Numbered from the stretch's first letter, positions 17,118 to 58,569 are shown. The stretch: DNA of 64,000 bases from Candidatus Omnitrophota bacterium (GCA_013285735.1 JABDGZ010000004.1:999-64998), one strand, 5' to 3'. Numbers and translations: made by a program. Notes: generated by a model from the letters alone, not told the origin.

Positions 17118-17972
17118 TTACTGCGGGATGCGCTTGCCTATTTTTGATAAAATTTGACTGTAGTTGCACTCGCTGGATATAAGATAGTATTCTTTCATAT
17201 GCCAGCTAACAGGTTCACGATTAAATAGATCAACTTCAACAGTATCTAAAACCTTACCATCTGAAATCCGGCGAAGATCAATCCCTGCCTTACGGATAAT
17301 AGGCCAGCTTCCGGCAAAATCCCATAAATGGCAGCGCAAAAAACAACCAATCCCCCGGCCAATGGTTGGCCAACAGAGATTAACCACTGCGCAAGCATGG
17401 ATCATGATATGAAAATCTCTATCATTCCAAAAAAACTTATCAAAAAATGTGTCATTGCAAAAGAATATGGATTGGGCAGACAATTCTTCATCTAAAGGAA
17501 CGATCTTAGTTTTAATTTCTTTAGGGCCAAAAGCATCTTGGACAAAATAGGCTTCAGTACCATCGCAATAAAAAAGTTCATTGAGCATAGGAAAATACAC
17601 AACGCCCAGCCACGGCTTTAAATCCTTAATTAACCCGATAGAAACGCCAAATAAAGGCATGTGATTAGCATACAGACGTGTCCCATCAATAGGGTCCACG
17701 GCCCAGATAAATGAAGTCTTATCAAGGCGCTTTTGCTCCAAGTATTCAGCAATACCTGGATCTTCCTCATCGATAAGAATATGCCCGGGGTCTTGCAAAA
17801 AATCACTGAGCCGCTCGCGGGCTAACTTTGAAATGGCCTTGTCAGCCAAGGTTATAATGGTGTGATCTTGCTTTAACCCTGGCTCGCTTTTACCCATCAA
17901 ATTCAAAGCAATGCCGCCTGCCTCGCGAGCCAAGAATAACATGCGTTCTAAATAAATATCGGAAGAAATCAT
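17118..17972 (-). CDS. inositol monophosphatase family protein (IMPase/CysQ-like)
   Basis: WAVDPIDGT motif. 284 aa. Confidence 0.75.
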   Translation of the reverse strand: MISSDIYLERMLFLAREAGGIALNLMGKSEPGLKQDHTIITLADKAISKLARERLSDFLQDPGHILIDEEDPGIAEYLEQKRLDKTSFIWAVDPIDGTRLYANHMPLFGVSIGLIKDLKPWLGVVYFPMLNELFYCDGTEAYFVQDAFGPKEIKTKIVPLDEELSAQSIFFCNDTFFDKFFWNDRDFHIMIHACAVVNLCWPTIGRGIGCFLRCHLWDFAGSWPIIRKAGIDLRRISDGKVLDTVEVDLFNREPVSWHMKEYYLISSECNYSQILSKIGKRIPQ

Positions 17973-19135
17973 GATGTTGGGTAAAATAAGGCCATGCTGT
18001 TGGTAAACCCGTGCAGAAAATTAATGCCCCCTACCGGGCCGATTTCCCCTGCACAAAAAAATCCCGCTGCCGGCACAGGGCCCAGGTGATGCTGGATGAT
18101 CTTGATATCATGGTCACGCTCTTTAAATAAATTAACACCGCGCCCATTGCATGAAAAAACAAAAGCCCCATGAGCAGCAACAGCTTGCTTTTTAGTTTTA
18201 TATTGTTTTAATAATTCATGCAAATCTTCTTGTGCTGTCTTGGCATCACGCACATGAAATTGGATGGTCTGCCCCACGTGCATATGATCCCCTACCGCAC
18301 CAGCACCGCTTTGAGGTTCAACCCCCATCACGCCGCGGATTAAAAAATCACCCCGTTTAAATTTATCTTTGTATTCATCCATGGCGATACCAATAAAAAT
18401 AGCTTCGTGGGCTAAATGACGATCATAGTCCGTGCCTTTATTCAATACTTCTTCTAAAACTTTATAAAAAGGCCGTCCGGCTAATTCATAAATAATGTTG
18501 CGTTCAGCGCGAGTCACAATGAATGTTTCTCCAATGGGCCGGCATCCTTGAGATACTACGGTTTCCACCCTCAGATTACCTGTAAGGCAAACACCGACAA
18601 GACCTTCCCGCATCACTTCCCCATCCAACATTAATATGTTTTCTCCAGGTTCGGAAGCTGCAGAAGCTAAACCTCCCACGATAGGCATTCCGGGGTACGC
18701 TTGATTTAAACCTGCCAAAAAAGCATTGCCATCAAATGCAAAAGGATCAGCAAATACGACAAAGTTAGGTTTTTCGTTCGGATATACTTCAAAAAAATTA
18801 TACCAATCCTCCTTGTTCTTTATGGCTTCCAACACAGGCTGAGTTAATGCAAAGGGTGTAATTTTTACCTGCGGCAGGCGCATCAGCATCAAAGATGCCG
18901 ACGGACGACCTTCAATCTCGCGCTCAGCACCGATGATACCGGCACAGGTACAGCAGATCAAATGACGCATCTTCCCCTGGGCCTTCAAGGCATGAAATAA
19001 TTCCAACGGGTCATAGGGCGGCCAGGGACAAACATATAAAATCCCTAAGTCAAAATCACCCTCAATTCCCATTAACAACTCGGAAATGATTTGAGGCACA
19101 TTATTTGCTTCAGTGATGCGATTGGTGAATTCCAT
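17969..19135 (-). CDS. conserved hypothetical protein, possibly a FIST-type sensor domain
   Basis: 388-aa soluble protein. The family assignment is uncertain. Confidence 0.35.
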   Translation of the reverse strand: MEFTNRITEANNVPQIISELLMGIEGDFDLGILYVCPWPPYDPLELFHALKAQGKMRHLICCTCAGIIGAEREIEGRPSASLMLMRLPQVKITPFALTQPVLEAIKNKEDWYNFFEVYPNEKPNFVVFADPFAFDGNAFLAGLNQAYPGMPIVGGLASAASEPGENILMLDGEVMREGLVGVCLTGNLRVETVVSQGCRPIGETFIVTRAERNIIYELAGRPFYKVLEEVLNKGTDYDRHLAHEAIFIGIAMDEYKDKFKRGDFLIRGVMGVEPQSGAGAVGDHMHVGQTIQFHVRDAKTAQEDLHELLKQYKTKKQAVAAHGAFVFSCNGRGVNLFKERDHDIKIIQHHLGPVPAAGFFCAGEIGPVGGINFLHGFTNSMALFYPTS

Positions 19136-37081: not shown

Positions 37082-38056
37082 ATGAAAATCGGATCGGTTG
37101 ATATAGAAAAGCCACTTTGCTTAGCACCCATGGAAGACGTCACGGAACTGCCTTTTCGTTTGATTTGTAAACGTCTAGGGGCTGATATCGTGTATACGGA
37201 ATTTACATCTTCCGAAGGTATTATCCGTGATATTCCACGTATCATGGAGAAAATCCAAATATCTGAGGATGAACGTCCTGTTTCTATCCAAATTTTTGGA
37301 GGCAGGCCCGAAGCCATGGCTGGTGCTGCTGAGGTTATTGAAAAATTAAAGCCAGACTTTATTGATGTCAATTGCGGCTGCTGGGTCAAAAATCATGTGG
37401 CCCGCAATGAAGGTGCCGGACTTTTACGCGACCTTCCCTTATTTGAAAAAATCGTCAAAGCGACCGTCAAAGGCACTAAATTACCTGTGACCGTCAAAAC
37501 CCGCCTGGGCTGGGATGATCAAAGCATTGTGATATTGGACGTTGCTAAAATGGTTGAAGCGGCCGGTGCCAAAGCCTTGACCCTACACTGCCGTACGCGT
37601 TCGCAAGCGCACAGCGGCTTTGCGGATTGGTCGTGGCTTGAAAAAATTAAAAAGACAATCAGCATACCTGTCATCGGCAATGGAGATATCACCTGCCCTG
37701 AAGATGTCAAAGCGATGTTAGAAACAGACTGCGACGGGGTCATGATCGGACGCGGCGCCATTGCCAATCCCTGGATATTTAGAGAAACCAAACATTATCT
37801 TAGGACTGGCGAGCATATGCCAGAACCAAGCATCGAAGAAAAAATCAACACTTGTATTGATCATTTAAATTTAAATGTGCAATATAAAGGCGAAGAATAC
37901 GGAGTAAAAACCTTCCGTAAACATTATGTCGGATATCTAAAAGGATTACCCAACATTGCTCCAGTCAGAAGTGAATTGATGCAGATGGTGATGATGGAAC
38001 CTGTGATTGAACGATTACAAAAATATTTGAATGAAAGTGTCTGTGAAAAAATTTGA
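37082..38056 (+). CDS. dus: tRNA-dihydrouridine synthase
   Basis: LAPMEDVTELPFR FMN-binding N-terminus. 324 aa. Confidence 0.85.
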   Translation: MKIGSVDIEKPLCLAPMEDVTELPFRLICKRLGADIVYTEFTSSEGIIRDIPRIMEKIQISEDERPVSIQIFGGRPEAMAGAAEVIEKLKPDFIDVNCGCWVKNHVARNEGAGLLRDLPLFEKIVKATVKGTKLPVTVKTRLGWDDQSIVILDVAKMVEAAGAKALTLHCRTRSQAHSGFADWSWLEKIKKTISIPVIGNGDITCPEDVKAMLETDCDGVMIGRGAIANPWIFRETKHYLRTGEHMPEPSIEEKINTCIDHLNLNVQYKGEEYGVKTFRKHYVGYLKGLPNIAPVRSELMQMVMMEPVIERLQKYLNESVCEKI

Positions 38057-41263: not shown

Positions 41264-42574
41264 ATGTTTTCTATGAAACTTACGGTTAATCAAAATTTCT
41301 CGCAAGCGATCTGTGTTCCCTGCATCCAGCGCCAGCAGGCTGAAATCAATCAATGGCTCTTATCCCATGAAAAGGTATATACTCCCTTTTATACATCGGT
41401 TGATATCCGTGATGCCGGCTTTAAAATCGCCGTCGTTGATACCAATCTTTTTCCCGCGGGTTTTAATAATCTTTGCGAACATGGTTTAGCTGATGCAGAG
41501 CTTTTCGTTAAAAAAGCTATTCTTTCACGCGTGCCTAATGCCTCCAATATTTTAATCGTTGCCGAAGAACATACACGCAACACCTGGTATCTGGAAAATG
41601 TCCGCATCCTGCAAGAAATTATCACCAAAGCCGGATTTAATAACAAAATTGCTACTTTTTTTTCCCACGACACAAGTTTGTGCGAATTAGGTTCCGGCGC
41701 TGTTGAATTAGAAACGGCTACCGGCCAAACAGTAAAAGTCTATTGCTTCAAACGCGTCCTGGAGAAAATTCGACAGAATGACGCGGATTTTGACCTTATC
41801 ATTATGAACAATGATCTCTCTGCTGGAATCCCGGAAGAATTAAAACAGATCCAAATCCCGATTGTTCCATCAATCCATGCAGGCTGGCATGCACGGCTTA
41901 AGTCTGAACACTTCCGCCACGCCAATGCCCTGATGAAAGAATTCGCCTATATCGTTGGTCTCGACCCCTGGCAATTTTCCTGCCTGTATGAAGTCGTTGA
42001 ACATGTGGATGTTAATAACGAATCTGATCAGCAACGCCTATATGCAGCAGCGGTCAAACTCTTTGAAGAGATCCAAAACAAATACCGTGAACATAATGTT
42101 GATAGTAAACCTTTCATTTTTATCAAATCTGATTCCGGAACCTACGGCATGGGTGTTGTTCCCATCGAAAGTCCAGAGCAAATCCTGGAATTAAACCGTA
42201 AAAAACGCAATGATCTTTTACGCGGCAAAGACGCGCAAACCATCACGCATTTTCTTCTACAGGAAGGTGTACCTACCATCCATCGTCTTGAGGAAAACCC
42301 CTGCGAGGTATGTTTGTATCAAATTGACAATAATTTCGTCGGTGGATTTTATCGGTATCACACCAACAAAAGTTCACGTGAAAATCTTAATTCTCCTGGA
42401 GGCATGACCTTCCAAAAAATGTGCCCGCATTTGGACAAATACGGTAAAGACTGCGGCACTGAACACAATTTGAATATTTTTTCTATTTACCGTATCCTGG
42501 GACGTATTGCGGGTGCAGCTGCTGGAAAAGAAATTATGGAATTGGATTCCCGCTTTCGCGGGAATGACAAGTAG
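41264..42574 (+). CDS. gshA: putative glutamate-cysteine ligase (proteobacterial GshA-type, PF08886-like). Its stop codon is supplied by a REP element.
   Basis: 436 aa directly upstream of gshB. I infer the family from gene context and size, not from a motif I can verify. Confidence 0.5.
   Translation: MFSMKLTVNQNFSQAICVPCIQRQQAEINQWLLSHEKVYTPFYTSVDIRDAGFKIAVVDTNLFPAGFNNLCEHGLADAELFVKKAILSRVPNASNILIVAEEHTRNTWYLENVRILQEIITKAGFNNKIATFFSHDTSLCELGSGAVELETATGQTVKVYCFKRVLEKIRQNDADFDLIIMNNDLSAGIPEELKQIQIPIVPSIHAGWHARLKSEHFRHANALMKEFAYIVGLDPWQFSCLYEVVEHVDVNNESDQQRLYAAAVKLFEEIQNKYREHNVDSKPFIFIKSDSGTYGMGVVPIESPEQILELNRKKRNDLLRGKDAQTITHFLLQEGVPTIHRLEENPCEVCLYQIDNNFVGGFYRYHTNKSSRENLNSPGGMTFQKMCPHLDKYGKDCGTEHNLNIFSIYRILGRIAGAAAGKEIMELDSRFRGNDK
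42544..42569. repeat. REP-like palindromic element copy overlapping the 3' end of the gshA-like CDS
   Basis: GGATTCCCGCTTTCGCGGGAATGACA encodes ..DSRFRGNDK plus TAG. Confidence 0.8.
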
Positions 42575-46716: not shown

Positions 46717-47211
46717 ATGGATAAACTTCCTTTACATACAATCAGTGTTTTAGTGGCTAATAAACCAGGCGTGCTGGTGCGCATTGCATTAGTATTCGCC
46801 CGTCGCGGCTATAATATTAATTCGCTGGTGGTCTCACCCACCATCAATCCTAAATATTCACGCATGACCATCACCGCCAAAGGTGATCTGGAAACATTGG
46901 AACAGATCATTAAAAACGTCAATAAACTCATTGATGTCATTCATTGCGAAGAACATCCTGCTAACACGGTAGAAAAAGAATTAGCCCTGCTTAAAACCAA
47001 GGCTTCCCCTGCAGTCAAAGCGTTTGTCACCAAGAACGCCCATAAATTCCACGTCCGTATCGATGACGCCTCTGAAGGCTGCTATATCATCGAACAGACC
47101 GGCACCACCCTTGAACTCGACGAGTTCGAGAGCTTAATCAAAAAATACGGCGTCCTGGAAATGGTACGCACCGGAAAAGTGCTTATTACCCGCGGACGGG
47201 AAGAGACTTAA
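46717..47211 (+). CDS. ilvN: acetolactate synthase small (regulatory, ACT-domain) subunit
   Basis: 164 aa with an ACT-domain N-terminus (ISVLVANKPGVLVRIALVFARRGYNI). Confidence 0.85.
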   Translation: MDKLPLHTISVLVANKPGVLVRIALVFARRGYNINSLVVSPTINPKYSRMTITAKGDLETLEQIIKNVNKLIDVIHCEEHPANTVEKELALLKTKASPAVKAFVTKNAHKFHVRIDDASEGCYIIEQTGTTLELDEFESLIKKYGVLEMVRTGKVLITRGREET

Positions 47212-49211
47212 ACTGCAGTTGTTATCCCAAGAAATCCCTTAAGATCTGTCATCGGCTTTATACTAATAATCACCGGCACAAAGCCCGGGGCGTTTCGAAG
47301 TTGTGCAAGCATAGCGGGATCAATGTGGAATTTGATTTCGCCGCCGTTATTCTGCGTCTGCAAATGCATGTTGGCAGGGGTTAAGTCGATACCACCTGTG
47401 CTTGATTCCTCCATTTGATGCATAGGTATAGTAGTATGCATCGCTGTATCAAATTTTAACAACACAAACTTCTCATCCTCAATACTGTTATATTGATCCT
47501 CCCCAAACATAGCTGTAAATTTCCCCCAAGAATCCATATGTTGAGGATGAACTTTGACCTTTGTACCATTAACATAAACTGGAAGCTTTTTGACAGTCTT
47601 GTCATTGTCAAAATTAAAAGCTCCATCTAAATCCCGAGGTAAAACCACCCCCTCCAATCCTAAGTTTCCTGCTAACTCATTTAACCCTTTAAGAAGATTT
47701 GTCAACAATTCCTCTCCATCTAAAGAAGCAGATTGAATCGTATCTACTACTAATACTTTTTTACCATCCTTTGTCTCTCCTTTCATCAAACCAACATAGC
47801 CCTTTAATTCTTTACCCTTATAAACAAAATAATACATCGTATCTTCGTGCATGGCCCTGGTAAATGCATACCCCTTATCCCTATCCATATCAAAAGAACA
47901 ATCCATAATTCCAGCTCTCCCTCTGAATACACCCAAAAATCCTTGTGGAACCAGCGAATAACCCTCCCCACCTTTGACCTTGATCACTTTGACTTTAGCT
48001 ATCTCCTCATATACATCGGCTGATAATTGTTCGAAACTCTCCGTAAGACCTTTAATGCTCTCTACCTTTACCCCTATGGCAGCCATCGGAAGATGTCTTT
48101 TGTAATCTTCGTAAAAACTCTTAAACGCTTCAATTTTTTCATCTATCTGTTCTGACTGAAGCTGTCGCACCAACCCTTCGTCTAACAAACTTTCAGCAAT
48201 GATTAAATTTCTCATTAAGACCAAACATCTTTCTGAATGCTCTCCTATGTATTTATCATAGGTTATTTTAAAAACCGTATTGTAGAATTCTTTCTTTTTT
48301 GATAATAATTCCTCTCTCATTACCATTTCTGATGGAAATGGAATACTAAATCTGTCCTTATCCGTAATAATTCCTTCGCGAATAGCTTCGTTTCTTTTAA
48401 AATTCCAATAAATATTACTTAATTTTAATTTTTTATCCCCTTCAAAATTCTCTAATAACCAATTAAAGCTATCTACCTCTGCCTGAATGCCCAACAATTT
48501 ATAAAGATGAGCATCAAACACCTCCCCATCGACATCCTCGACGACTTTATTTTCATACTCTGTAGCGCTAACGTTTAATACTCCCAAGCCTTTGGTTTTA
48601 TTAAAAAGCATTTGCCAGTATCCGGGATTCTTTTTATCAAATTTAATTAACTCACCTATCCTTTCTTCAAATTCATCCCTTGTCAAAACTATCCCGCTAC
48701 TCCTGACAGCCACGTATGCAAACCATAATTTCTTGGGATCATTATAATCAAAACCATTCTCTATTACTTGATGTGCTTCTCTTTTTATTTGTTCAACAAA
48801 TCTAACAGGATCACTACTATCCCAAAAAGACTCAAAAATTTCTTCTTCATATGGAAAATTTTCTTTAATCCATAAAGAATATCTCATAAAACCCTCTGGC
48901 GAGAAATTCTTTTCCTCGATCATTCTGGGATATACAAAACTCAAAACATTAAGAATTGCATGCCTTGCATCTGTACCCCACTCTGAATTTAAACGCTTTT
49001 CTAGATCTTCTGATGTTAAATATCCCTGCTCGACCATTTTTAAATACAGGGGACCCAAAGCATCAACGATTTCATCTCTAACGGAACTATACTCTCTAGT
49101 ATCAAGGAGTTTTTCTAAGACTTCTATAGGCACCCTCTCTCCTCGCTCTGCCCTCCATAGGTATAACTTGCTAAGAGCTTTGATGATTGCTTTCTGTGAA
49201 TCAGAATACAT
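47208..49211 (-). CDS. large protein of unknown function, 667 aa. It has no signal peptide and carries the shared C-terminal module.
   Basis: C-terminus STGGIDLTPANMHLQTQNNGGEIKFHIDPAMLAQLRNAPGFVPVIISIKPMTDLKGFLGITTAV. The coding sequence is AT-rich. Confidence 0.7.
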   Translation of the reverse strand: MYSDSQKAIIKALSKLYLWRAERGERVPIEVLEKLLDTREYSSVRDEIVDALGPLYLKMVEQGYLTSEDLEKRLNSEWGTDARHAILNVLSFVYPRMIEEKNFSPEGFMRYSLWIKENFPYEEEIFESFWDSSDPVRFVEQIKREAHQVIENGFDYNDPKKLWFAYVAVRSSGIVLTRDEFEERIGELIKFDKKNPGYWQMLFNKTKGLGVLNVSATEYENKVVEDVDGEVFDAHLYKLLGIQAEVDSFNWLLENFEGDKKLKLSNIYWNFKRNEAIREGIITDKDRFSIPFPSEMVMREELLSKKKEFYNTVFKITYDKYIGEHSERCLVLMRNLIIAESLLDEGLVRQLQSEQIDEKIEAFKSFYEDYKRHLPMAAIGVKVESIKGLTESFEQLSADVYEEIAKVKVIKVKGGEGYSLVPQGFLGVFRGRAGIMDCSFDMDRDKGYAFTRAMHEDTMYYFVYKGKELKGYVGLMKGETKDGKKVLVVDTIQSASLDGEELLTNLLKGLNELAGNLGLEGVVLPRDLDGAFNFDNDKTVKKLPVYVNGTKVKVHPQHMDSWGKFTAMFGEDQYNSIEDEKFVLLKFDTAMHTTIPMHQMEESSTGGIDLTPANMHLQTQNNGGEIKFHIDPAMLAQLRNAPGFVPVIISIKPMTDLKGFLGITTAV

Positions 49212-49262
49212 GTATCCGTCAGATAAATACAGGTATAGGTAATCATTGGAATGATATAAAAT

Positions 49263-52200
49263 TTAATTATTGTGGAACTGTTGAGGAGATTTAGATGTCA
49301 ATCCCAAAAATATCCTAATGTTTCTCATTGGCTGAATATTAATAATAACTGGTATAAAACCATGGGCATTTTGTAATTGTTTAAGCAAGACAAGATTAAG
49401 ATGAAATTTAATTTCACCATTACTATATTGAATTTGAAGATTCATATTCTCAGGAGTTAAGTCAATACCACCATAATTTGGATTGTTTAATTGTGCAACA
49501 TAATTATTACCAACGTTTTGAGGTCGCTGTGACCATAAACTTAATTCTCTAATCATAGGTGGGGTTAAAGAATAATCCCACCTTCTGTCGTTCACACGAT
49601 CACGAACATCCACGCTTAAATATGTGAACTGCTCAACCTTAACTTGATTTTCATCAAGCAAATGGATAGTCTGTCTCAAAGTTGATTCTGCCCATTGGGG
49701 GGTAGCCCCATAAGGACCGCTGGATGGAATTCCAGCTTCTGGAAACACCCAAGGCTTACTAACATAGGTTTTTGATACGCGCTTAATATAATCAAATGTT
49801 TCATCTTTGTTTAAAGGAGTTAAATATAAATCAAAACCAAATGCATCAAAACTATTTAAATTCGGGCGATAGTTTTCTCCGTACTTATTCATCTGAGTGT
49901 AAACAATTCTAAAGTTTAAACCATTTTCTTGGCCCAAACGTCTTAAATATGCAGATGTATCCTCAAATCTTTTCTTATAGGCATTATATGCCACTTCAGT
50001 CCATCTCTTTCCATTAGGAGTTCCATCCTCAGTGCCATAAGACATATTATCTGGCTCCGATGCTACTCGGATATAAATAGTGTCATTTTTATCAAAACCT
50101 GCGTCTTTAAATTTTTGCACCATAAAATCAATTTCTTTTTGATCAATCGTTTCCAAGCCTATAAATGGTGCGACTCCCATACCTCTTAAACGGTTCAATT
50201 CATTAACATTCCAAACAGCAAAATTTGAAGCCCCGGTGCTTGAAGGAACATCATGATTCCAATAATACATAAGAGCTTGATGAGAAAAAACTCCTTTTTG
50301 CCTTCCATATGCAATGGTCTTAAAATATTGATCAACTGTAAAATTAGGAAGATAATCGGAGTACGCCCCAACCGGTTTATCAATCTTATTTTCTGGTTGA
50401 GGAGCAAAAGATACTGTTTCGGTACCTTCTTTACTATCAACTTGAAAAAACGAAACGCTCGGTGGTTTATTTTCAAATGTTGGAGCTACCTTATTATGTG
50501 CATATGCTTGAGGCATCATGAAAAGTGCACTAACCCCCAATGTTAAAGCTATGGCGGTTGCCAATGTTCTTTTAGGAGTGAATAATCTTTGTACCAAGGA
50601 TTGTACGAAAGGAACAGATGGGTTTCTTCTAGAAGGTTTTGAGGGGACCTTAATGGGAGACGCGGTACTCGTTTTAACAGCCATTGTAGGTTCAACCGCT
50701 ACAACCGGACTACTTGGTACTTGTATATTACTGCTAAGTGCAAAGATATTTTGAACTTCCTGAATTGTTTCCAACCTACCCGTATATGCCGCTGATATCA
50801 ATCTAATCTTTATTCCTAACGGAAGGCCTCCGGTCTTTTCATCCTTTTTTAAATCATCATCACTAATCCCAAGGCTATCCTGAATACCCTTGATCGTTTG
50901 ATCAAACATTTCTTCCTTCTGAGAAACCATTACTCCATTCCTGTTAACTTTTTTTGCTAAAGATACGTACAATGCTGCTGTTAATATTCTTTGTTTCTGT
51001 ACATAATCTAAATTTTGAATATTAATACCAAATCTATTTTCTACATCGCTGATAAACCTTCCCCAAGCTGCATATGTCGTCTCACCCGATATTTTGTCAA
51101 CAACAGTTAAAAGTTGTCTTTTAGCTGTAGGCCTAAGATTTTCAAAATCGATCCCATATTTAGTAGAAAAATCTCTTAGAATTTTTCCCATAACTCTTAT
51201 ACGCTCATCAGTCACCCTATCATTATGAACTTTTGAAGCAATGATGTTACCAACTTTTGCTTTTAATTTCCTATTCTTATTCCCTTTCAAAATTTCTGCT
51301 AAAGAATTTTCAACATCAGCTCTTTCAGTCTGCTCTGTGATCAACATTGCCCTATCTGGTGAAAGCATCGCCCCATCAGCACCATGCGAATCTGAAGTAA
51401 CTTCAAAATTAGGAATCTCTAAATTAGAATCCCCTTTTTGAAATAATGCCAAAAACGCTCCTCCTGAGAAATATTTCCTTGGTATAGTCTCTTGCGTTAC
51501 AGGATCAACATCTTCTTTGATGTAGTTATACACACCCTTCTTAAAAGCCTTAAGATATCGCTGATAAATTTCTTCTTTCTCCTGTGGGTTATCAATATTG
51601 ACTCCAGCGACCTTGTTCTTATCCGCGTATACCTGTGATAATATGCTTTCTTTGATTTTTTTCTTATACCATGTAGCTAAAATGAGCGAACTATATACCT
51701 GACGTAGTTGGGCGAAATTCTTATCTTCATTAACTTCTTTTTTTAATTCAGGAATAATTATCTCGCGTACGATCTGGCTGCCTAATTGGTTAGTATCTTT
51801 TGCTTGTGTCTGCCGAGATTGGATTCCTTCATGTTTGGTCAATGACAGATAATCTTGCTCTAACATTACTTTTAGTTTTGATTCGACTACATAAGCCGTG
51901 CCTGCTTTTGTATTCTCATAAACTACCGCTTTTTCAGGTACTATCCAAACCTTGTTAAAGGTATTCACCGGAACATTGGTTGTCCCAAATTTTTTAGCGG
52001 CTTCTTCGTAGATTCGCTTCCAGAATTTCTTTCCAATCGTATCTTCAGGGTAAATCAAGCTGGCTGTTATTTGCTTGAGCATATAATCTTCGGCCAACAG
52101 GTCTCGCCCCATCTCAGTAAGCCCAAAGCTATTAGGAATAATACGATCCTTTTCATACGGGGAAAGATTGACCCAAAGGTCTTTCTCAGGGATGGTCAAA

Positions 52201-52474
52201 GAGGCAAGGAAATATTTAATCAGTTTGCTAGATTCATCTTTAAGCTGGCCATTGCTTAATTCACCATCTCCTTTATCTAGAATAAAGTCAAATCTAAACG
52301 GGTTATCAGGATGAACCTTGATTCCTTTAAGAATCGGTGGATCAAATGGAGGACTTAAATGAACCATGACCCCAGGCGTAGGCAAATAATAATCTTGGGC
52401 TTGGGCTAAGGGCATGGGGCCAAAGGAATTAATCAAGAAGGCTACAAGAATAAGGATTAATAGGGATTTTCTCA
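49263..52474 (-). CDS. large protein of unknown function, about 1070 aa. It has a signal peptide, an N-domain paralogous to the 854-aa protein, an internal signal-peptide-like segment, a possible TIM-barrel hydrolase-like region and the shared C-terminal module.
   Basis: I chose the start at Met 52474 (MRKSLLILILVAFLINSFGPMPLAQAQ, a Sec signal). The ORF track starts 13 codons upstream. The C-terminus is YGGIDLTPENMNLQIQYSNGEIKFHLNLVLLKQLQNAHGFIPVIINIQPMRNIRIFLGL. Confidence 0.7.
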
Positions 52475-52667
52475 TCTTAATATAAATATACCATGCATTT
52501 GATAGTAAAAACAAGGGTTGGTGGGAAACTGGCTGGGAATGATACCATAGATCGTTACCCCCCTGCTTGTGAGAAAGTTGAGAAGATCTTATGTGTGAGC
52601 GAAAAAGTCTTTAAGAAGATTCAAAGGGATTTTGAGAGATTTGGTATCAAGGTGGGAAACTGGCCTT

Positions 52668-54224
52668 TTAGGCTTTTTGCCATCTGTCAGGAAGAAGTTC
52701 CTCTAGTCGTGAGATTGGATGGGACTGAATTCTTTGTAAAACGTCTTTCAAATAAGTCCACGTATTGATCTTATTTTTGCGGCAAGTGGCGGTAAAGGTC
52801 ATGAGTATCGCAGCTGTATGACCACCTTTTTCACTTCCAACAAAAAGCCAATTTTTGCGTCCTAAGGCTATTGGACGTATGGCATTTTCAGCAAGATTAT
52901 TGTCTATCGGTAATCGGCCATCTTGAAGATAAGCATTAAGTTCTTTCCAAAGGCCAAGCGTGTAATTAATGGCCAGACGCATGGGTGATTGTGGTAAATG
53001 TCCGGGAAGATGTTCTTCAAGTTTATTTTTAATTTTATCTAATAACACCCTAGATTCTTTTAACCGGAGAGCATGCCTATCTTTTGGGCTTAAGAATTTA
53101 GCATCAGATTCAACATGATACAATTTGGCGATTAGCACCAGTACTTCAGTTGCTGCGCGTGGTGATGTTTTTTCAGCGTCTAGAAAATACCGCCTTGCAT
53201 GCGCCCAACAGGCTAAATGGGTTACGATGTGAGCGGTGGTTTCCTCTGTGGTAGGAGGTTTTCCTAATCCGCTATAGCCAGCATAGGCATCGGACATAAA
53301 AAATCCTTTGTAATCTTTAAAGAATTCCAATGGACCTTCTTTACAGCGGTTTATTGTAAAATTGTACAGTGCATATTTGAAGTTTTCAGCTCCAACTGTT
53401 GCCCACATCCTTGCTGTCTGTATCCCTTTGTTCGGGCCATCTCGCATGTCCACCGGGGTGTCATCATTGCCTACAATGCCGTGTTCAAAGATTTTATTGC
53501 GCTTTAGATCATATAAAGGGGTAAGTGCTAAGGCGCATCCATACATCCAATCAGCCATGGTTTGGCGGCTGATATTTACACCTTCTCGTTTAAGTTTCTC
53601 TTCAATCCTGTACAAAGGGGTATGATATTCAAACTTCTCCGTGATCACATAGGCTAAAAGACCAGCATCTGCTTCACAGCGTTCAATAGGGCCTTCCGGT
53701 GTGGGATGCTGTTTAACACCACAGCCATCACAGCGACTATCCCCACAAGCATACTTGGGTCTCACATAGCTATTGACCAACAGGGATGAGGGGTGGTAAT
53801 CAAGGCGTTCGGTTATATCATCGCCGATATGAACAAGCTTCTTGCCGCAGCCACAGACTTTTTTCTCTTCATGGACATCTAAAACATGTTCAACACGCTT
53901 AAGATGCTCTGGTAATTTCTGACGGCCATGATGATTACGCACATGTGCTGTTACCGCCGTTGTTGTCTCAAGCAGGGGATCTTCTGCCTTTGGGGCAGTA
54001 TTCTTGTCTACTTCTAGGATAAGTTCTTGCATAAGCAGTTGATTGGGGTCAAGTTTTTCACTGCTTCGGCCATACAGACGTTTTATCAAGCCTTCTAATT
54101 GGTGCTGCTGTTTAAGGATTGTATTTTGGAGGGTTTCTACAAGTGCTTCGAGTTGTTGGTTTTGTTCTTTTAGGTATGTATTTTCTTCAGCAGGAGTTGA
54201 GAAAGTAAGCGTCGTCGATACCAT
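52668..54224 (-). CDS. tnpC: IS66 family transposase TnpC
   Basis: N-terminal leucine zipper, then a zinc-finger region CGCGKKLVHIGDDITERLDYHPSSLLVNSYVRPKYAC, and a DDE core. Confidence 0.85.
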   Translation of the reverse strand: MVSTTLTFSTPAEENTYLKEQNQQLEALVETLQNTILKQQHQLEGLIKRLYGRSSEKLDPNQLLMQELILEVDKNTAPKAEDPLLETTTAVTAHVRNHHGRQKLPEHLKRVEHVLDVHEEKKVCGCGKKLVHIGDDITERLDYHPSSLLVNSYVRPKYACGDSRCDGCGVKQHPTPEGPIERCEADAGLLAYVITEKFEYHTPLYRIEEKLKREGVNISRQTMADWMYGCALALTPLYDLKRNKIFEHGIVGNDDTPVDMRDGPNKGIQTARMWATVGAENFKYALYNFTINRCKEGPLEFFKDYKGFFMSDAYAGYSGLGKPPTTEETTAHIVTHLACWAHARRYFLDAEKTSPRAATEVLVLIAKLYHVESDAKFLSPKDRHALRLKESRVLLDKIKNKLEEHLPGHLPQSPMRLAINYTLGLWKELNAYLQDGRLPIDNNLAENAIRPIALGRKNWLFVGSEKGGHTAAILMTFTATCRKNKINTWTYLKDVLQRIQSHPISRLEELLPDRWQKA

Positions 54225-54277
54225 TAGATTTATATTAGCACTTATCGTCGGTGAATCAAGATATTTATTAGATATTT

Positions 54278-54637
54278 TTACATCATTTTAACATTATCAC
54301 GTCGGTATCGTGGTTGACGTTTGATCACTCTTGCTTCAATTCCTTCAAGTAAATTTGCCCATGATGCACGGTCAAGACAGCTACCATCATCAGAAGGGAT
54401 CACAAACCTACCTGCTTCAAGCCGTTTATACCACAACGCATAACCATCGTTATCCCAATAGAGAACTTTTAACTTGGTTTTATTTACATTTAGAAAAACA
54501 AACCAATCGCCATTTAAGGGGTCTTCATGCATTTCATCGGTCACCATCAATGACAAACGATCAAAACTTCTGCGCAAATCACAGCTGCCGCGATATAAAA
54601 ATATCCTGACATTGTTCAAATTAATTCCTGAGATCAT
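54278..54637 (-). CDS. tnpB: IS66 Orf2 accessory protein TnpB
   Basis: 119 aa with [23 protein letters not shown], the characteristic IS66 Orf2. Confidence 0.85.
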
Positions 54638-54936
54638 ATGGCTTTGACCAACCCAAGGATCTTTTGGAAAATCAATTCATCAAAACCATTGAGCTCGATC
54701 TTGTACCCATTGGGGGTTTCAATATGAAGATCCTTCAGGGTGGGGAATGAAGGTTTGATTAACCGAAGGAATCCTGGCTTGGGAGATTCATTACTGATTA
54801 ATCTTTTACGCCATGCATAAAAATTGCTTATGTTGATATTTTTATTCTTGCAGTATTGGGATATTGATAAACCGCTGGTAGGTTGGGCAAAAAGTATTTT
54901 TTGCCATTGCTTCTTTGATCGAAAAATTTTCTTCAT
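54634..54936 (-). CDS. tnpA: IS66 Orf1 (TnpA-like helix-turn-helix protein)
   Basis: 100 aa with a 4-bp overlap with orf2 and an AGGAGG RBS. Confidence 0.7.
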
Positions 54937-55026
54937 CGACGTTCCTCCTATGAATTGTTATAATAATGCAATATTTTACCGCACTATTAAAATGATTCAT
55001 AGATGGATTAGTCGGACGGATACATT

Positions 55027-58000
55027 TTGAGTGGAAATGAGAATTCAGAAAATAAATCTTCACGTTTACAATTCGTTGACATAGTGAATCCGACCCTTGT
55101 TACCCAAATATATCATGAGGCAAATAAAATAATTGGAAATGCCGCTAAATGGACTATTGCAAAACACAAGTTTTCTGAGTTCGATCCAAGAATATTAGAA
55201 GAATTAATGAAGCCAGAAAATGATATTTTGGAGAATATTTCTTCAACAGAGGTCCGTTTAAAGGCTAATTTAGACTGGAATAAACTTATTAGGATACAAG
55301 AAATTGCGGGAAGTGATTTTGAAAAAATTAGGGACATTTTGCAACAGTCCGAAGTGAGAACTGAATATAAATTTGAAATTAAAGATTTTGCTCCCAAAAC
55401 TCCTGATTATTCATCTTTTGAGGGTAAGACAATTGATAGTTTGAAAGAATTTGATGAATGGGCCCAAGTTTACGCACTTGCTTTTTTACCTGCAGCTTAT
55501 GGTGACCCGCAACTCATTGATAAATCGAGACAGGAAATTTTATCTGTAATTGATAAGGACCCAAGAAAGAGGGATCTTTGGTCAATGGTAAGAAATGGCT
55601 TCAATCAAATGACCTCTATTACTACTAAAGACACTGAGCGGAAATCACATTTGAAAACACATCTTGGCACTATTTTAGACGATAGAAAGGGTATTGAAGA
55701 AAAGCTTGAAGAATTGAATAATACTCGCACATTGCCGGAATTGGATGAAATGATAGCAGCAAATAATGTAATGTCATCGGTAGGGAATGGGGTGGTGACA
55801 AGCGGGGAAATAGGAAAAATTGCAGCGGGATTATTACCGGGATTGGCGTCTGGTTTAGGGGCTATTGATCAACCAATAGAATCTTTCGTTAATGCGGCGA
55901 TGAATGCAAGGGATCAGGCGATGACTGTGGTCGATCAAAGGGATCGATTGGTTCGAAATTTGAGAATCTTGTTAGAAAGGCCGGATGTTCAAATAGGATT
56001 AGGTAATCATGAGGCTGTTCGTTACATGTTAAATGGCGTAGCAAGTGCCGCAACAATAAATCCTGGTCCCGCTGCTGTTATTTCATTAGAAAGTTATATA
56101 AAAAAGATAGAAGATTTACTTATTCCAGTGAAACAAAAAATTGAGCTACTAAAGAAGCTTCACAACGAAAATCCTGAGGTTTTCAATGAAGTTGATCAAA
56201 TGGTGATGCTTGAGAATGAAGGATATTCTCCAAAAAAGAGATCGATTGTAAATAAATTAGATAAGGATGAAAATAGTTTTTTGTTTTCTAAGGTTACTAA
56301 GATTCTTGGAGCACGCATATATTATGTGGATCCAACTGTTAAAATACTTATGGCGCATTATGTTCAGGAAGAAGGTGCTAATAAAAGAATAACTTATCAA
56401 GAGCCAACTGCGCTTTTGTTTTCTACATCATCATCCGTCGCCAAGATACAGGCCCAAGCAGCGACACCGGCAGAATGGATTCAAAGGAATCATATGTATG
56501 TTATTGATGGTAGGGAGAAGTTTACAGATCTTGTGAGGTTTACAGAATATTTACTCAAGGCTTATCGAGCCAATCCACATATTCCAGTTGTAGGCTATTT
56601 AGATAAATGGTGTGTGCTTCCAACTCCTCTCGACTTAGTAAAGGAGCGTTTGATCGGTTCCAATGATGTTGTCCGTGCGCTTTCTGATGAAGCGGTAAGT
56701 CGTTCTAATAATATGCCGGTATCAAGTGACGGCATTTTCGATTTGTATTATTTTGCGTCTAAGCTTCTAGATGAAAGGCAAATAAGAGCAACACCTTTCG
56801 TTACGGGTGAATTTAAAGGCGTTACATTAACTGCAATTCGTGAATCGACAATAGAAAGCATTATCACTGAATATAATAAGGTGGTGGCCCGTCCGACAGA
56901 ACCCTATGCTCCTCAAGGCAGCATTGATGGTCAAGCAGCGACACCAAGAGAATGGATGGAAAGACATAATATTCAAATTTTAGAAGGCAGATCATTAAAC
57001 GGTATTAAAAGTGTTGAAGAATTGGCTATGATTTTAGTTCAGCAATTTCAAACCAGACAAAGGCCTGTTGCGGCTGAATGGGAAGGGACTTGGTTAATGA
57101 CAGATCCTTATTTATTCCTGGAGGCGGCTAATCTTGTTGACGTTGGTCAAAGAATGGTTTATGAATGGAGAGAGCGTAAAGCTCGTGCCACTGTTTTGGA
57201 TAGAGGCATTCCAGATTTGAATAATTTTGCGGCTACGTTATTGGATGAAAGGCAAATACGGGGCGATGTTGTGGTTAAAGGCGAATTTGGAGGGATTACT
57301 TTAGTAGCCAATGGACGCACAACGTTACGCAATATTATTCGTCAATATAATGTGGCGGTAAAAAGCATTCCTTCTGTTGGCCCTTTTGATAGTAGTCGCG
57401 AGGTAAAAAGCTTGGATGCATTGGTTAAACGGCATAATATATTATGGATTAACGGGAATGAAATTTTTAGAAAAAGAGGACGGCTGGGGAAGGCTGCTGA
57501 TATCATAGATTTCGCTTTGGATTTAATTGATTTTCAACGTCTAAATCCAATCCAGCCGCATGGCGGCACATGGAATGGGGTGAGCCTAATTTTAGATCCG
57601 TTTTACTTAATGGGGGTTAGCACAGTCGTTGCTAATAAAATTAAAACTCAATATGATCGTCGTTTTAGTAATGAGGAAGAGCCTAATAGACCTATGGAAA
57701 GCTTGTTAGATTTTGCCATCAGACTTTTAGAGGAGAGGGTAATAAGAAGAGATTCTTTCCCAAATGCAAAGCAATTTGAAGCTATCTATAAAGATCCGTC
57801 CGACCAATCTGATGATAAGGGCACCAGTTTAATAGTAACTCCACAATCAACAGTAAAAAGTATTATAGGTCAGTATAATAGAAAGAACCCGCTAAAGCCT
57901 TATACCCCTAACCATAACGAATTAAGAGTTTTTTATGAAGATAAAATGGGAACTGGCGGGATGGGTTTTATTAGGTTTTTACTTGAGGAATACCGATGGG

Positions 58001-58569
58001 ACCCAAGCAGGCCGGTTATTGGCCTAACGCATGGTAAATGGGTCACCCCAGAGCCTTCTGACTTGGTTGTCGATCCTTATTCCGCTGTTTCTAGAATTTC
58101 TAAGGAATTGGAAGATCGGATAAATAATAATCCTTTAGCAGATGACGGTATTGAAGACGTGAGGGATTATGCAGAGGAACTTCTTCATGAAAGAGATATG
58201 AGACAAACACAACAATCTGTTGATAAAGTTACATTTAAAGGCATACAATTAATAGTATCTCCACAATCAACAATAAATAGTATTGTCGAAGATTACAATC
58301 AACAAACTGCTCAATCTCCATCGGCGACAGATGATCAGGCGATGAAGGTCACTGAGAAAAGGTCTAATGGGCCAGGTGGTATCGATTTAAGCCCTGCTAA
58401 TAATGTTTTACAAACCCGAAATGCTGGCATAGGGATCAAATTTCACTTAGATGCTGCCCAGCTTGCCCAATGGCAAAAAGCCCCAGGTGTGATGATTGAG
58501 GATATTACTATCCAGCCGCTTAAAAGTCTTTCTGTCTTTCTTGGTCTACCTGACAGCCAACCTGTTTAA
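55027..58569 (+). CDS. large protein of unknown function, about 1180 aa, with four tandem repeat modules of about 170 aa and the shared C-terminal module. The 5' end is possibly truncated by the IS66 insertion.
   Basis: It starts at a TTG immediately after an in-frame stop, about 90 bp from the IS66 orf1 start, with no SD sequence. The repeats carry LL(D/E)ER.IR...GEF.G(I/V)TL......I..YN. The C-terminus is GPGGIDLSPANNVLQTRNAGIGIKFHLDAAQLAQWQKAPGVMIEDITIQPLKSLSVFLGL. Confidence 0.65.
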   Translation: MSGNENSENKSSRLQFVDIVNPTLVTQIYHEANKIIGNAAKWTIAKHKFSEFDPRILEELMKPENDILENISSTEVRLKANLDWNKLIRIQEIAGSDFEKIRDILQQSEVRTEYKFEIKDFAPKTPDYSSFEGKTIDSLKEFDEWAQVYALAFLPAAYGDPQLIDKSRQEILSVIDKDPRKRDLWSMVRNGFNQMTSITTKDTERKSHLKTHLGTILDDRKGIEEKLEELNNTRTLPELDEMIAANNVMSSVGNGVVTSGEIGKIAAGLLPGLASGLGAIDQPIESFVNAAMNARDQAMTVVDQRDRLVRNLRILLERPDVQIGLGNHEAVRYMLNGVASAATINPGPAAVISLESYIKKIEDLLIPVKQKIELLKKLHNENPEVFNEVDQMVMLENEGYSPKKRSIVNKLDKDENSFLFSKVTKILGARIYYVDPTVKILMAHYVQEEGANKRITYQEPTALLFSTSSSVAKIQAQAATPAEWIQRNHMYVIDGREKFTDLVRFTEYLLKAYRANPHIPVVGYLDKWCVLPTPLDLVKERLIGSNDVVRALSDEAVSRSNNMPVSSDGIFDLYYFASKLLDERQIRATPFVTGEFKGVTLTAIRESTIESIITEYNKVVARPTEPYAPQGSIDGQAATPREWMERHNIQILEGRSLNGIKSVEELAMILVQQFQTRQRPVAAEWEGTWLMTDPYLFLEAANLVDVGQRMVYEWRERKARATVLDRGIPDLNNFAATLLDERQIRGDVVVKGEFGGITLVANGRTTLRNIIRQYNVAVKSIPSVGPFDSSREVKSLDALVKRHNILWINGNEIFRKRGRLGKAADIIDFALDLIDFQRLNPIQPHGGTWNGVSLILDPFYLMGVSTVVANKIKTQYDRRFSNEEEPNRPMESLLDFAIRLLEERVIRRDSFPNAKQFEAIYKDPSDQSDDKGTSLIVTPQSTVKSIIGQYNRKNPLKPYTPNHNELRVFYEDKMGTGGMGFIRFLLEEYRWDPSRPVIGLTHGKWVTPEPSDLVVDPYSAVSRISKELEDRINNNPLADDGIEDVRDYAEELLHERDMRQTQQSVDKVTFKGIQLIVSPQSTINSIVEDYNQQTAQSPSATDDQAMKVTEKRSNGPGGIDLSPANNVLQTRNAGIGIKFHLDAAQLAQWQKAPGVMIEDITIQPLKSLSVFLGLPDSQPV

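Follow-up and report, generated by a model that had tools for sequence, protein, structure and literature searches.

A 64,000-nt stretch of DNA from a Candidatus Omnitrophota bacterium (GCA_013285735.1, JABDGZ010000004.1:999-64998; hereafter the window) holds one copy of an insertion sequence (IS) of the IS66 family, whose transposition genes, tnpA, tnpB and tnpC, lie in that order on the minus strand. The product of tnpA (IS66 orf1, 54634-54936, 100 aa) matched the model NF047593 (IS66_ISAeme5_TnpA) at 1.4e-17, over the curated cut-off. The tnpB gene (IS66 orf2, 54278-54637, 119 aa), which overlaps tnpA by 4 nt, gave matches to PF05717 (2e-29) and NF033819 (7e-27). The tnpC gene (52668-54224) codes for an IS66-family DDE transposase of 518 aa that covers positions 3-283 of the 284 in PF03050 (5.4e-83), contains the IS66 leucine-zipper, zinc-finger and C-terminal domains as well (PF13817, PF13007, PF13005), and matched NF033517 at 2e-112, with 376 bits versus a cut-off of 180. 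A complete three-gene IS66 module on the minus strand had been proposed in an earlier reading of the window (the original prediction), and all three genes indeed carry Pfam or NCBIfam signatures. With these TnpC domains and the accessory genes upstream, the module belongs to the IS66 family in the ISfinder sense. Many metagenomic relatives of TnpC are 73-89% identical to it, while the nearest named IS66 transposases (e.g., ISPre3) reach only ~37%; a TnpC search of genome contigs returned only a 33% relative.

Downstream of tnpC, on the same strand, lies a gene for a protein of 1070 aa (49263-52475), followed by an open reading frame (ORF) of 667 aa (47208-49211, minus strand). On the other side of the module, an ORF of 1180 aa (55027-58569) is read from the plus strand. 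The original prediction had the IS merely sitting between the divergent 1070-aa and 1180-aa genes. From comparison of sequences, we conclude instead that the module and the 1070-aa gene very probably form a single passenger-carrying IS66 element (tIS66) of 5812 bp, at 49212-55023, with the 1070-aa gene as cargo inside the element ends. The resident DNA would therefore consist of the two flanking ORFs, of 667 and 1180 aa.

Ends and extent of the element

The left terminal inverted repeat (IRL, GTATCCGTCCGACTAATCCAT) lies at 55003-55023 on the minus strand. Alignments with related copies at loci L004, L006 and L008 break exactly at its outer border, and in all copies fetched for comparison similarity ends at 55023, the DNA beyond differing from contig to contig. 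The conserved sequence of this end, GTATCCGTCCGAC(C/T)AATCCATCTATGAATC, adjoins unrelated flanks in 50 metagenome contigs, and many contigs break within the element. The border that had been placed at 55023/55024, 3 nt ahead of the TTG that opens the 1180-aa ORF, is thus correct, since related copies with unrelated flanks lose similarity there.

The right terminal inverted repeat (IRR, GTATCCGTCAGATAAATACAG; 49212-49232, plus strand) was found in a scan weighted towards the terminal bases. It is located 51 nt beyond the stop codon of the 1070-aa gene, its strand is that of a right end, and its outer side touches the ATG of the 667-aa ORF. It matches the IRL at 16 of 21 positions, the first nine (GTATCCGTC) included. 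The IRRs of the elements at L059 and L061 are identical to it (21/21 positions), and those at L012, L019, L033 and L060 agree with it at 19/21; in these relatives the IRR falls 40-150 nt past the cargo stop codon. A search of the window with a 19-mer of the IRL, in which up to three mismatches were allowed, missed the IRR because it has four mismatches to the pattern used. Together, IRL and IRR have the form typical of IS66 ends, imperfect terminal repeats of ~15-30 bp that begin with GTA.

No inverted repeat was found in the window copy directly after tnpC or at position 52637, where a border had been suggested earlier and where, as had been conceded at the time, no convincing repeat was visible. 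An apparent inverted repeat, GTAA(AA)ACAAGGGT(T/C)GG, present at 52505 and 55103, was rejected as a pair of ends because related copies lose similarity at 55023 and not at 55103; its copy at 52505 belongs to the conserved region upstream of the cargo gene.

The mobile unit was set at 49212-55023 because the IRR matches those of the relatives, and because relatives of the same layout carry target duplications outside their IRL and IRR. The 2387-bp extent given earlier has to be abandoned, the left copy of the direct repeat that bounded it being internal to an element that reaches 49212. Along the minus strand, the element would be made up of IRL (55023-55003), tnpA, tnpB, tnpC, a spacer of ~190 bp, the 1070-aa cargo gene, 51 nt, and IRR (49232-49212). 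A passenger unrelated to transposition, situated inside the IS ends and downstream of tnpC, is what defines a tIS66, and the 1070-aa gene is such a passenger. Judging from its relatives and from what is known of the family, TnpC, together with TnpA and TnpB, would act on both 21-bp ends; everything between them, cargo included, would have moved, and an 8-bp target duplication would have been made.

Related elements

The elements at L012 (1614-6983, 5370 bp) and L008 (2202-5779, 3578 bp) are flanked on both sides by perfect 8-bp duplications, ATAATTTA and AAATTAAT, respectively. The same is true of the element at L045 (803-4315, 3513 bp; duplication GAAGTTAA), which has near-perfect inverted repeats and interrupts a gene for a head domain (described below) at approximately codon 248. 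The element at L059 (9211-15779, 6569 bp) has a 7-bp flank duplication, AATTTTA. Found around relatives that bear cargo and stand at different sites, these duplications lend indirect support to the view that the whole unit, cargo included, can transpose.

The window element is colinear with that at L059, the identity being 85.8% in the core, 74.9% in the head, 73% in the tail and 100% over the last 23 nt. A gene of the head type follows tnpC on the same strand in seven independent contigs, and the flanks at the IRL differ in all of them; homologous heads, 66-86% identical in aa sequence over the first ~340 residues, come after tnpC at L059, L060, L061, L012, L033 and L039. The layout common to the relatives is tnpA-tnpB-tnpC-cargo-IRR. 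In nine elements that were compared, eight of them relatives of the window element, the cargo is in every case on the strand of tnpC, between this gene and the IRR, and consists of a single gene (for 1344, 1175, 1070, 1032, 970, 778 or 338 aa) or of a set of two or three small genes. Elements with other cargos are those at L019 (821-5948), L045, L008 and L047 (123-6096), which carry, in this order, three small ORFs that look membrane-bound or secreted, two small ORFs, an ORF of 338 aa, and a 1032-aa protein with a signal peptide.

Cargo-free versions of ~2430 bp, with the IRR straight after tnpC, are seen at L046 and at the inner end of the L019 element. The latter holds both an inner IRR, which delimits an element of 2429 bp, and an outer one, which delimits 5128 bp; this double IRR may be a snapshot of cargo capture. 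The inner IRR has been lost in the lineage of the window, L059, L039 and L012.

At two loci, L059 (16730-21566) and L061 (9896-12109), the element adjoins integrase, relaxase/DUF3363 and HTH_17 genes of integrative or mobilisable regions. Elements of the tIS66 kind may also travel on larger mobile elements.

The direct repeat and the 117-bp segment

The 8-bp sequence ATTTTGAG, previously taken for a target duplication, does occur both at 52629-52636 and at 55024-55031. Its left copy lies inside the 5812-bp unit and has no recognisable end beside it. We consider the repeat to be probably a coincidence, because no end adjoins the left copy, because the inner IRR was lost in this lineage, and because a similar chance repeat exists at L045, where GAAGTTAA occurs a third time, inside the element. 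The left copy falls within a segment of 117 bp (52534-52650, no strand assigned) that was found only in the window: it is absent from the colinear elements at L059 and L039, and a comparison with all fetched loci and with the window gave no match. A perfect 14-bp direct repeat, GGTGGGAAACTGGC, bounds the segment at 52520-52533 and 52651-52664. Its interpretation as a clean miniature inverted-repeat transposable element was rejected because the 8-bp inverted repeats in it (TGATACCA) are internal and not at its ends. On the minus strand, beside the promoter-proximal copy of the 14-bp repeat, stands GTATCATTCC, which matches the start of the IRL at 8 of 10 positions.

In-silico excision, conducted by deleting 52637-55031, extended the 1180-aa frame by 11 codons (AKKSLRRFKGI), as far as a TGA at 52596. 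These codons included no start and encoded no signal peptide, and the longer ORF that had been expected was not rebuilt. The plus-strand ORF at 52493-52768 (91 aa), which had been put forward as the displaced 5' end of the 1180-aa gene, exists. It does not have that role: it is in another frame, antisense to the 3' end of tnpC and inside the element, and the colinear elements at L059 and L039 lack 117 of its 276 nt.

The cargo gene and its protein family

The 1070-aa protein, whose gene shares its position with the cargo of the relatives, is composed of a signal peptide, a conserved head of ~345 aa that ends in RKYFSGG, a variable middle part, and a tail of ~65 aa with the signature GGIDLTPAN...IKFHLDPA...PVIINIQP...FLGL. 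Searches of Pfam, NCBIfam and PDB sequences with this protein gave no match, and the head and the tail of the family are both without a Pfam or NCBIfam model. A single-sequence AlphaFold model of the head was unusable (predicted local distance difference test score, pLDDT, 44.6). The tail is found in all three proteins, of 1070, 667 and 1180 aa, and was matched by 592 proteins in a HMMER search of 1.84 billion representatives (50% clustering). Across many metagenomic proteins, the same head and tail enclose very different middles. Of 40 tail-bearing proteins that were sampled, ~30 begin with a signal peptide and head, and 8-10 do not. In the window, the 1070-aa protein begins in this way and the 667-aa and 1180-aa proteins do not. 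Thus, the earlier statement that the 1180-aa protein has no signal peptide stands, whereas the accompanying statement that two family members have one does not, since the 667-aa protein also has none.

The region just upstream of the cargo gene (52476-52519, minus strand; CCCTTGTTTTTAC...TGGTATATTTATATTAAG-ATG) is AT-rich and is shared in conserved form by the window, L059 and L039 and, in part, by L046. It is probably the gene's own promoter, with a leader that would be very short or absent; in a promoter consensus scan this region fell short.

In many genes of the window, the Shine-Dalgarno sequence is missing and a TATAAT-like box stands 6-10 nt ahead of the ATG; examples are the boxes upstream of 17969-19135 (minus), 37082-38056 (plus), 41264-42574 (plus) and 49263-52475 (minus). 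This suggests that leaderless or near-leaderless mRNAs are frequent in this genome.

A D-x-A-M motif, often GDRAM or DQAM, was found 143 times in 57 proteins of the family, mostly at module borders, where 5.7 occurrences were expected (a ~25-fold excess, due in part to the DPAM that occurs inside the tail). It is present at residues 367 and 374 of the 1070-aa protein, 296 and 1103 of the 1180-aa protein, and 588 of the 667-aa protein. The motif could mark linkers or be a site of processing.

Reading frames at the element ends

The 1180-aa ORF, in host DNA against the IRL, contains four internal repeats of ~150-170 aa each and a tail at aa 1103-1179. Its in-frame TAG (55009-55011) and its TTG (55027) are as described earlier. 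The TTG, which has no clear Shine-Dalgarno sequence, is the sole start candidate at the boundary, and the ORF is indeed without a convincing start; the first in-frame ATG lies farther on, at codon 61 and not after ~58 codons as counted earlier. Coding potential scores positive from 55027 on, in contrast to negative values within the IS. A word-index search with the 1180-aa protein matched only the protein itself, and a PDB sequence search was empty. In a full HMMER pass through the 1.84 billion proteins, essentially no homologue of the N-terminal ~1090 residues was detected, the matches being to the C-terminal tail of ~70 aa (the 592 proteins) and, in one weak case, to an internal repeat. A profile of the internal repeats detected no incomplete copy at the ORF's N-terminus.

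Two promoter-like sites are located near the start of this ORF. One, TCGACG-17-TATAAT with a TG ahead of the -10 box (54936-54964, plus strand), points outward from the left end of the IS and, at 10/12 positions, agrees with the consensus better than any other site in the region. The other, TTCAGA-17-TACAAT, is in the flank (55044-55072; 9/12 match), 11 nt ahead of an in-frame GTG at 55084. The number of promoter-like sites in the region was no higher than in shuffled sequence.

Farther downstream, the 1180-aa ORF contains an IRL-like relic (57792-57821, plus strand) in which 16 nt, ATCCGTCCGACCAATC, in frame at 57794-57809, agree exactly with the consensus IRL. None of 100 shuffles gave a match even with one mismatch, the chance expectation being ~0, and the relic coincides with an insertion of 12-14 residues that distinguishes internal repeat 3 from repeats 1, 2 and 4. 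It is probably the footprint of an earlier insertion by the same IS family. An inversion between the element and the relic at 57792 was considered and rejected, as the predicted flanks failed (GAATACAT is not TTATAGAT); the internal repeat that runs on across the relic also counts against it.

The 667-aa ORF, whose ATG lies directly against the IRR, has HEAT-like repeats at its start and the tail domain of the family. Its best homologue, P0289, has at least 111 more residues of the same repeats before the equivalent of residue 7. Another protein, P0288 (641 aa, of NCBI origin), corresponds to residues 27-667 and begins 26 codons past the ATG next to the IRR, making that ATG, like the TTG of the 1180-aa ORF, only a putative start. 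A HEAT gene beside the L008 element proved to be unrelated to the 667-aa ORF.

Both flanking ORFs open at the element ends and read outward, and many other copies of the element sit inside long ORFs. The two outward ORFs, together with the missing target duplication (see below), suggest a later deletion or recombination. Further points in its favour are that the 667-aa ORF begins within a HEAT-like array that extends farther in P0289, and that the coding signal of the 1180-aa ORF sets in at the boundary. The likeliest history would place the window copy at a secondary rearrangement junction, which could have arisen by deletion between two directly oriented copies or by an adjacent deletion mediated by the transposase; 5' parts of both flanking genes would have gone with it. 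The 1180-aa ORF would then be without its native upstream DNA, and perhaps without its first codons, and its expression would depend on read-out from the left end of the IS or on a weak internal start. Overall, a 5812-bp tIS66, of which this copy sits at a likely secondary rearrangement junction with possible loss from the 1180-aa ORF, appears to us the probable explanation of the locus.

Alternative interpretations

Several observations weigh against this explanation, those on the extent of the element being as follows. The 8-bp target duplication expected of IS66, present at L012, L008 and L045 and shortened to 7 bp at L059, is missing from the window copy, where GAATACAT at 49204-49211 faces ATTTTGAG at 55024-55031; the mobility of this copy as a 5812-bp unit therefore rests on its relatives. 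The miss concerns the history of this copy and not the mechanism of the IS66 family. In addition, ATTTTGAG abuts the IRL and recurs 32 nt beyond the tnpC stop codon, and the chance expectation of this fixed 8-mer in the 192 nt after tnpC, calculated from real word density, is 0.006-0.009, so that the match is noteworthy. The last event could thus have been an insertion of the 2387-bp module alone (52637-55023) in ATTTTGAG, ahead of a 1070-aa gene that already had an orphan IRR; in a nested version, the IRR would have been orphaned, for example, by a local hop or by the deletion of an older module, and that module would have left the 14-bp copy at 52520-52533 as a relic. The end that the exact repeat abuts was set independently of it, the 117-bp segment with its perfect 14-bp repeat shows that the DNA separating tnpC from the cargo promoter underwent some event, a GTATC is present 7 nt inward of the proposed end, and the ~2430-bp versions at L019 and L046 have their IRR directly after tnpC. 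However, no IRR is present at the proposed right end (...CCAAATCT), the inner one being lost throughout the lineage of the window, L059, L039 and L012, and it would be a large coincidence if a module landing by itself upstream of a cargo gene and its IRR had, in the right orientation, reproduced precisely the arrangement seen at L059, L012 and L060. Since excision rebuilds no gene either, and the third GAAGTTAA at L045 is a comparable chance 8-mer, we regard this history as quite unlikely. An old, immobile IS that was inherited vertically beside a resident 1070-aa gene, so that their repeated adjacency reflects orthologous loci, would agree with the similar order of divergence between contigs in the IS core (77-86%) and in the head (74-77%). 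It is contradicted already by the target duplications of the relatives: perfect 8-bp duplications bracket IRL, cargo and IRR at L012, and the same ends bracket other cargos at L008 and L045. As the IRL-side flanks are also unrelated in every contig, the three transposition genes all intact, and the contigs often broken inside the IS, as happens with a multi-copy repeat, vertical inheritance is extremely improbable.

The remaining contrary points concern the flanking genes. The 1180-aa gene could start natively at the in-frame GTG 55084, behind the promoter-like site at 55044-55072; nothing positively indicates truncation of this gene, as no homologue spans the N-terminal ~1090 residues; and proteins with the tail and without head or signal peptide are common (the 8-10 of 40 mentioned above), so that the absence of these parts from the 1180-aa protein does not prove truncation. 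Truncation of the 667-aa ORF is weakly indicated, the N-termini of its homologues being variable. The IS may accordingly have landed in the DNA ahead of the gene and had no effect, with the 1180-aa gene intact, starting at GTG 55084 or ATG 55207 and transcribed from its own promoter within 55032-55080. The many window genes that have a -10-like box just upstream of the start and no Shine-Dalgarno sequence are in line with such an arrangement, but the frame and the positive coding score reach the IS boundary, shuffled sequence yields as many promoter matches of the 9/12 kind, and the absent target duplication and the second ORF that opens at the other end point to lost DNA. We find an IS without effect doubtful, and that the 1180-aa gene was truncated or rewired an evenly balanced proposition.

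Discussion

The name tIS66 is used for IS66 elements that carry passenger genes behind the DDE transposase gene, ISPa75-fosZ being an example (PMC12888890). The published ends, GTAAGCGTCCGG.../GTAACCGTCCGG... (PMC12888890), are close to the GTATCCGTCCGA of the window element; both begin GTA.CCGTCCG. In both, tnpA, tnpB and a DDE tnpC are followed by one or more passengers before the IRR, the passenger has its own promoter (probably so in the window), and 8-bp duplications are made, in our case by the relatives. The differences are that the window cargo, at 3.2 kb, is larger than the module, while ISPa75 (2996 bp) has a passenger of ~0.4 kb; that the cargo codes for a modular protein with a signal peptide and not for resistance; that the host is a Ca. 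Omnitrophota bacterium; that no target duplication is present in this copy; and that TnpC is only ~37% identical to named IS66 transposases. With a classic IS66 of the ISPre3 type (~2.5-2.7 kb), the element shares the three-gene module, the overlapping tnpA and tnpB, the Pfam and NCBIfam signatures and imperfect terminal repeats of ~20 bp, and it has cargo-free relatives of ~2430 bp (the inner end at L019, and L046); in contrast to a classic IS66, its IRR after tnpC is gone and a functional-looking one lies 3.4 kb on, past the cargo. A composite transposon likewise mobilises a gene without a role in transposition. This interpretation was rejected, as it requires two IS copies: the window has a single copy with one IRL/IRR pair, and the cargo lies inside the IS ends and not between two IS.

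Very long or modular secreted proteins of Omnitrophota are the subject of two preprints (bioRxiv 10.1101/2023.11.21.568195; 10.64898/2026.06.07.730766). The RlmN of the window belongs to a 90%-identity cluster with a member named Candidatus Omnitrophota, which makes this phylum its probable source. Probable phylum, large size with a signal peptide and scarce annotation are common to both groups, and the proteins of the family in the window are distinguished by lengths of ~0.7-1.9 thousand aa from the giants studied in the preprints. Term searches of the two texts found no mention of IS66, and the passages that they returned do not describe the head/tail architecture or an IS that carries such a gene.

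It may be asked if the IS66 lineage is a dedicated vehicle and remodeller of the head-tail family, one that both carries its genes and inserts into or next to them. The idea arises because the L045 element lies inside a head, because both flanks of the window element carry tails, and because the 1180-aa ORF holds the in-frame IRL relic. Genes of the family make up ~5 of 40 element flanks, a raw count without a background density, and we think a dedicated role unlikely. Were it true, the elements would bring head and tail modules beside resident ones and could drive the shuffling and diversification of possibly secreted Omnitrophota proteins, in-frame footprints marking earlier visits.

For annotation, the consequence is that the 1070-aa gene should be treated as mobile cargo, and the 667-aa and 1180-aa frames as junction ORFs of doubtful integrity. 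Transposase genes and a short direct repeat are insufficient to delimit an IS; here, the comparison of copies shifted one border by 3.4 kb. In an uncultivated phylum, IS66 elements appear to move passengers of 3-4 kb that code for modular proteins of an abundant, unannotated family, and the carriage of such cargo would be a simple route by which the genes of modular proteins are spread and rearranged.

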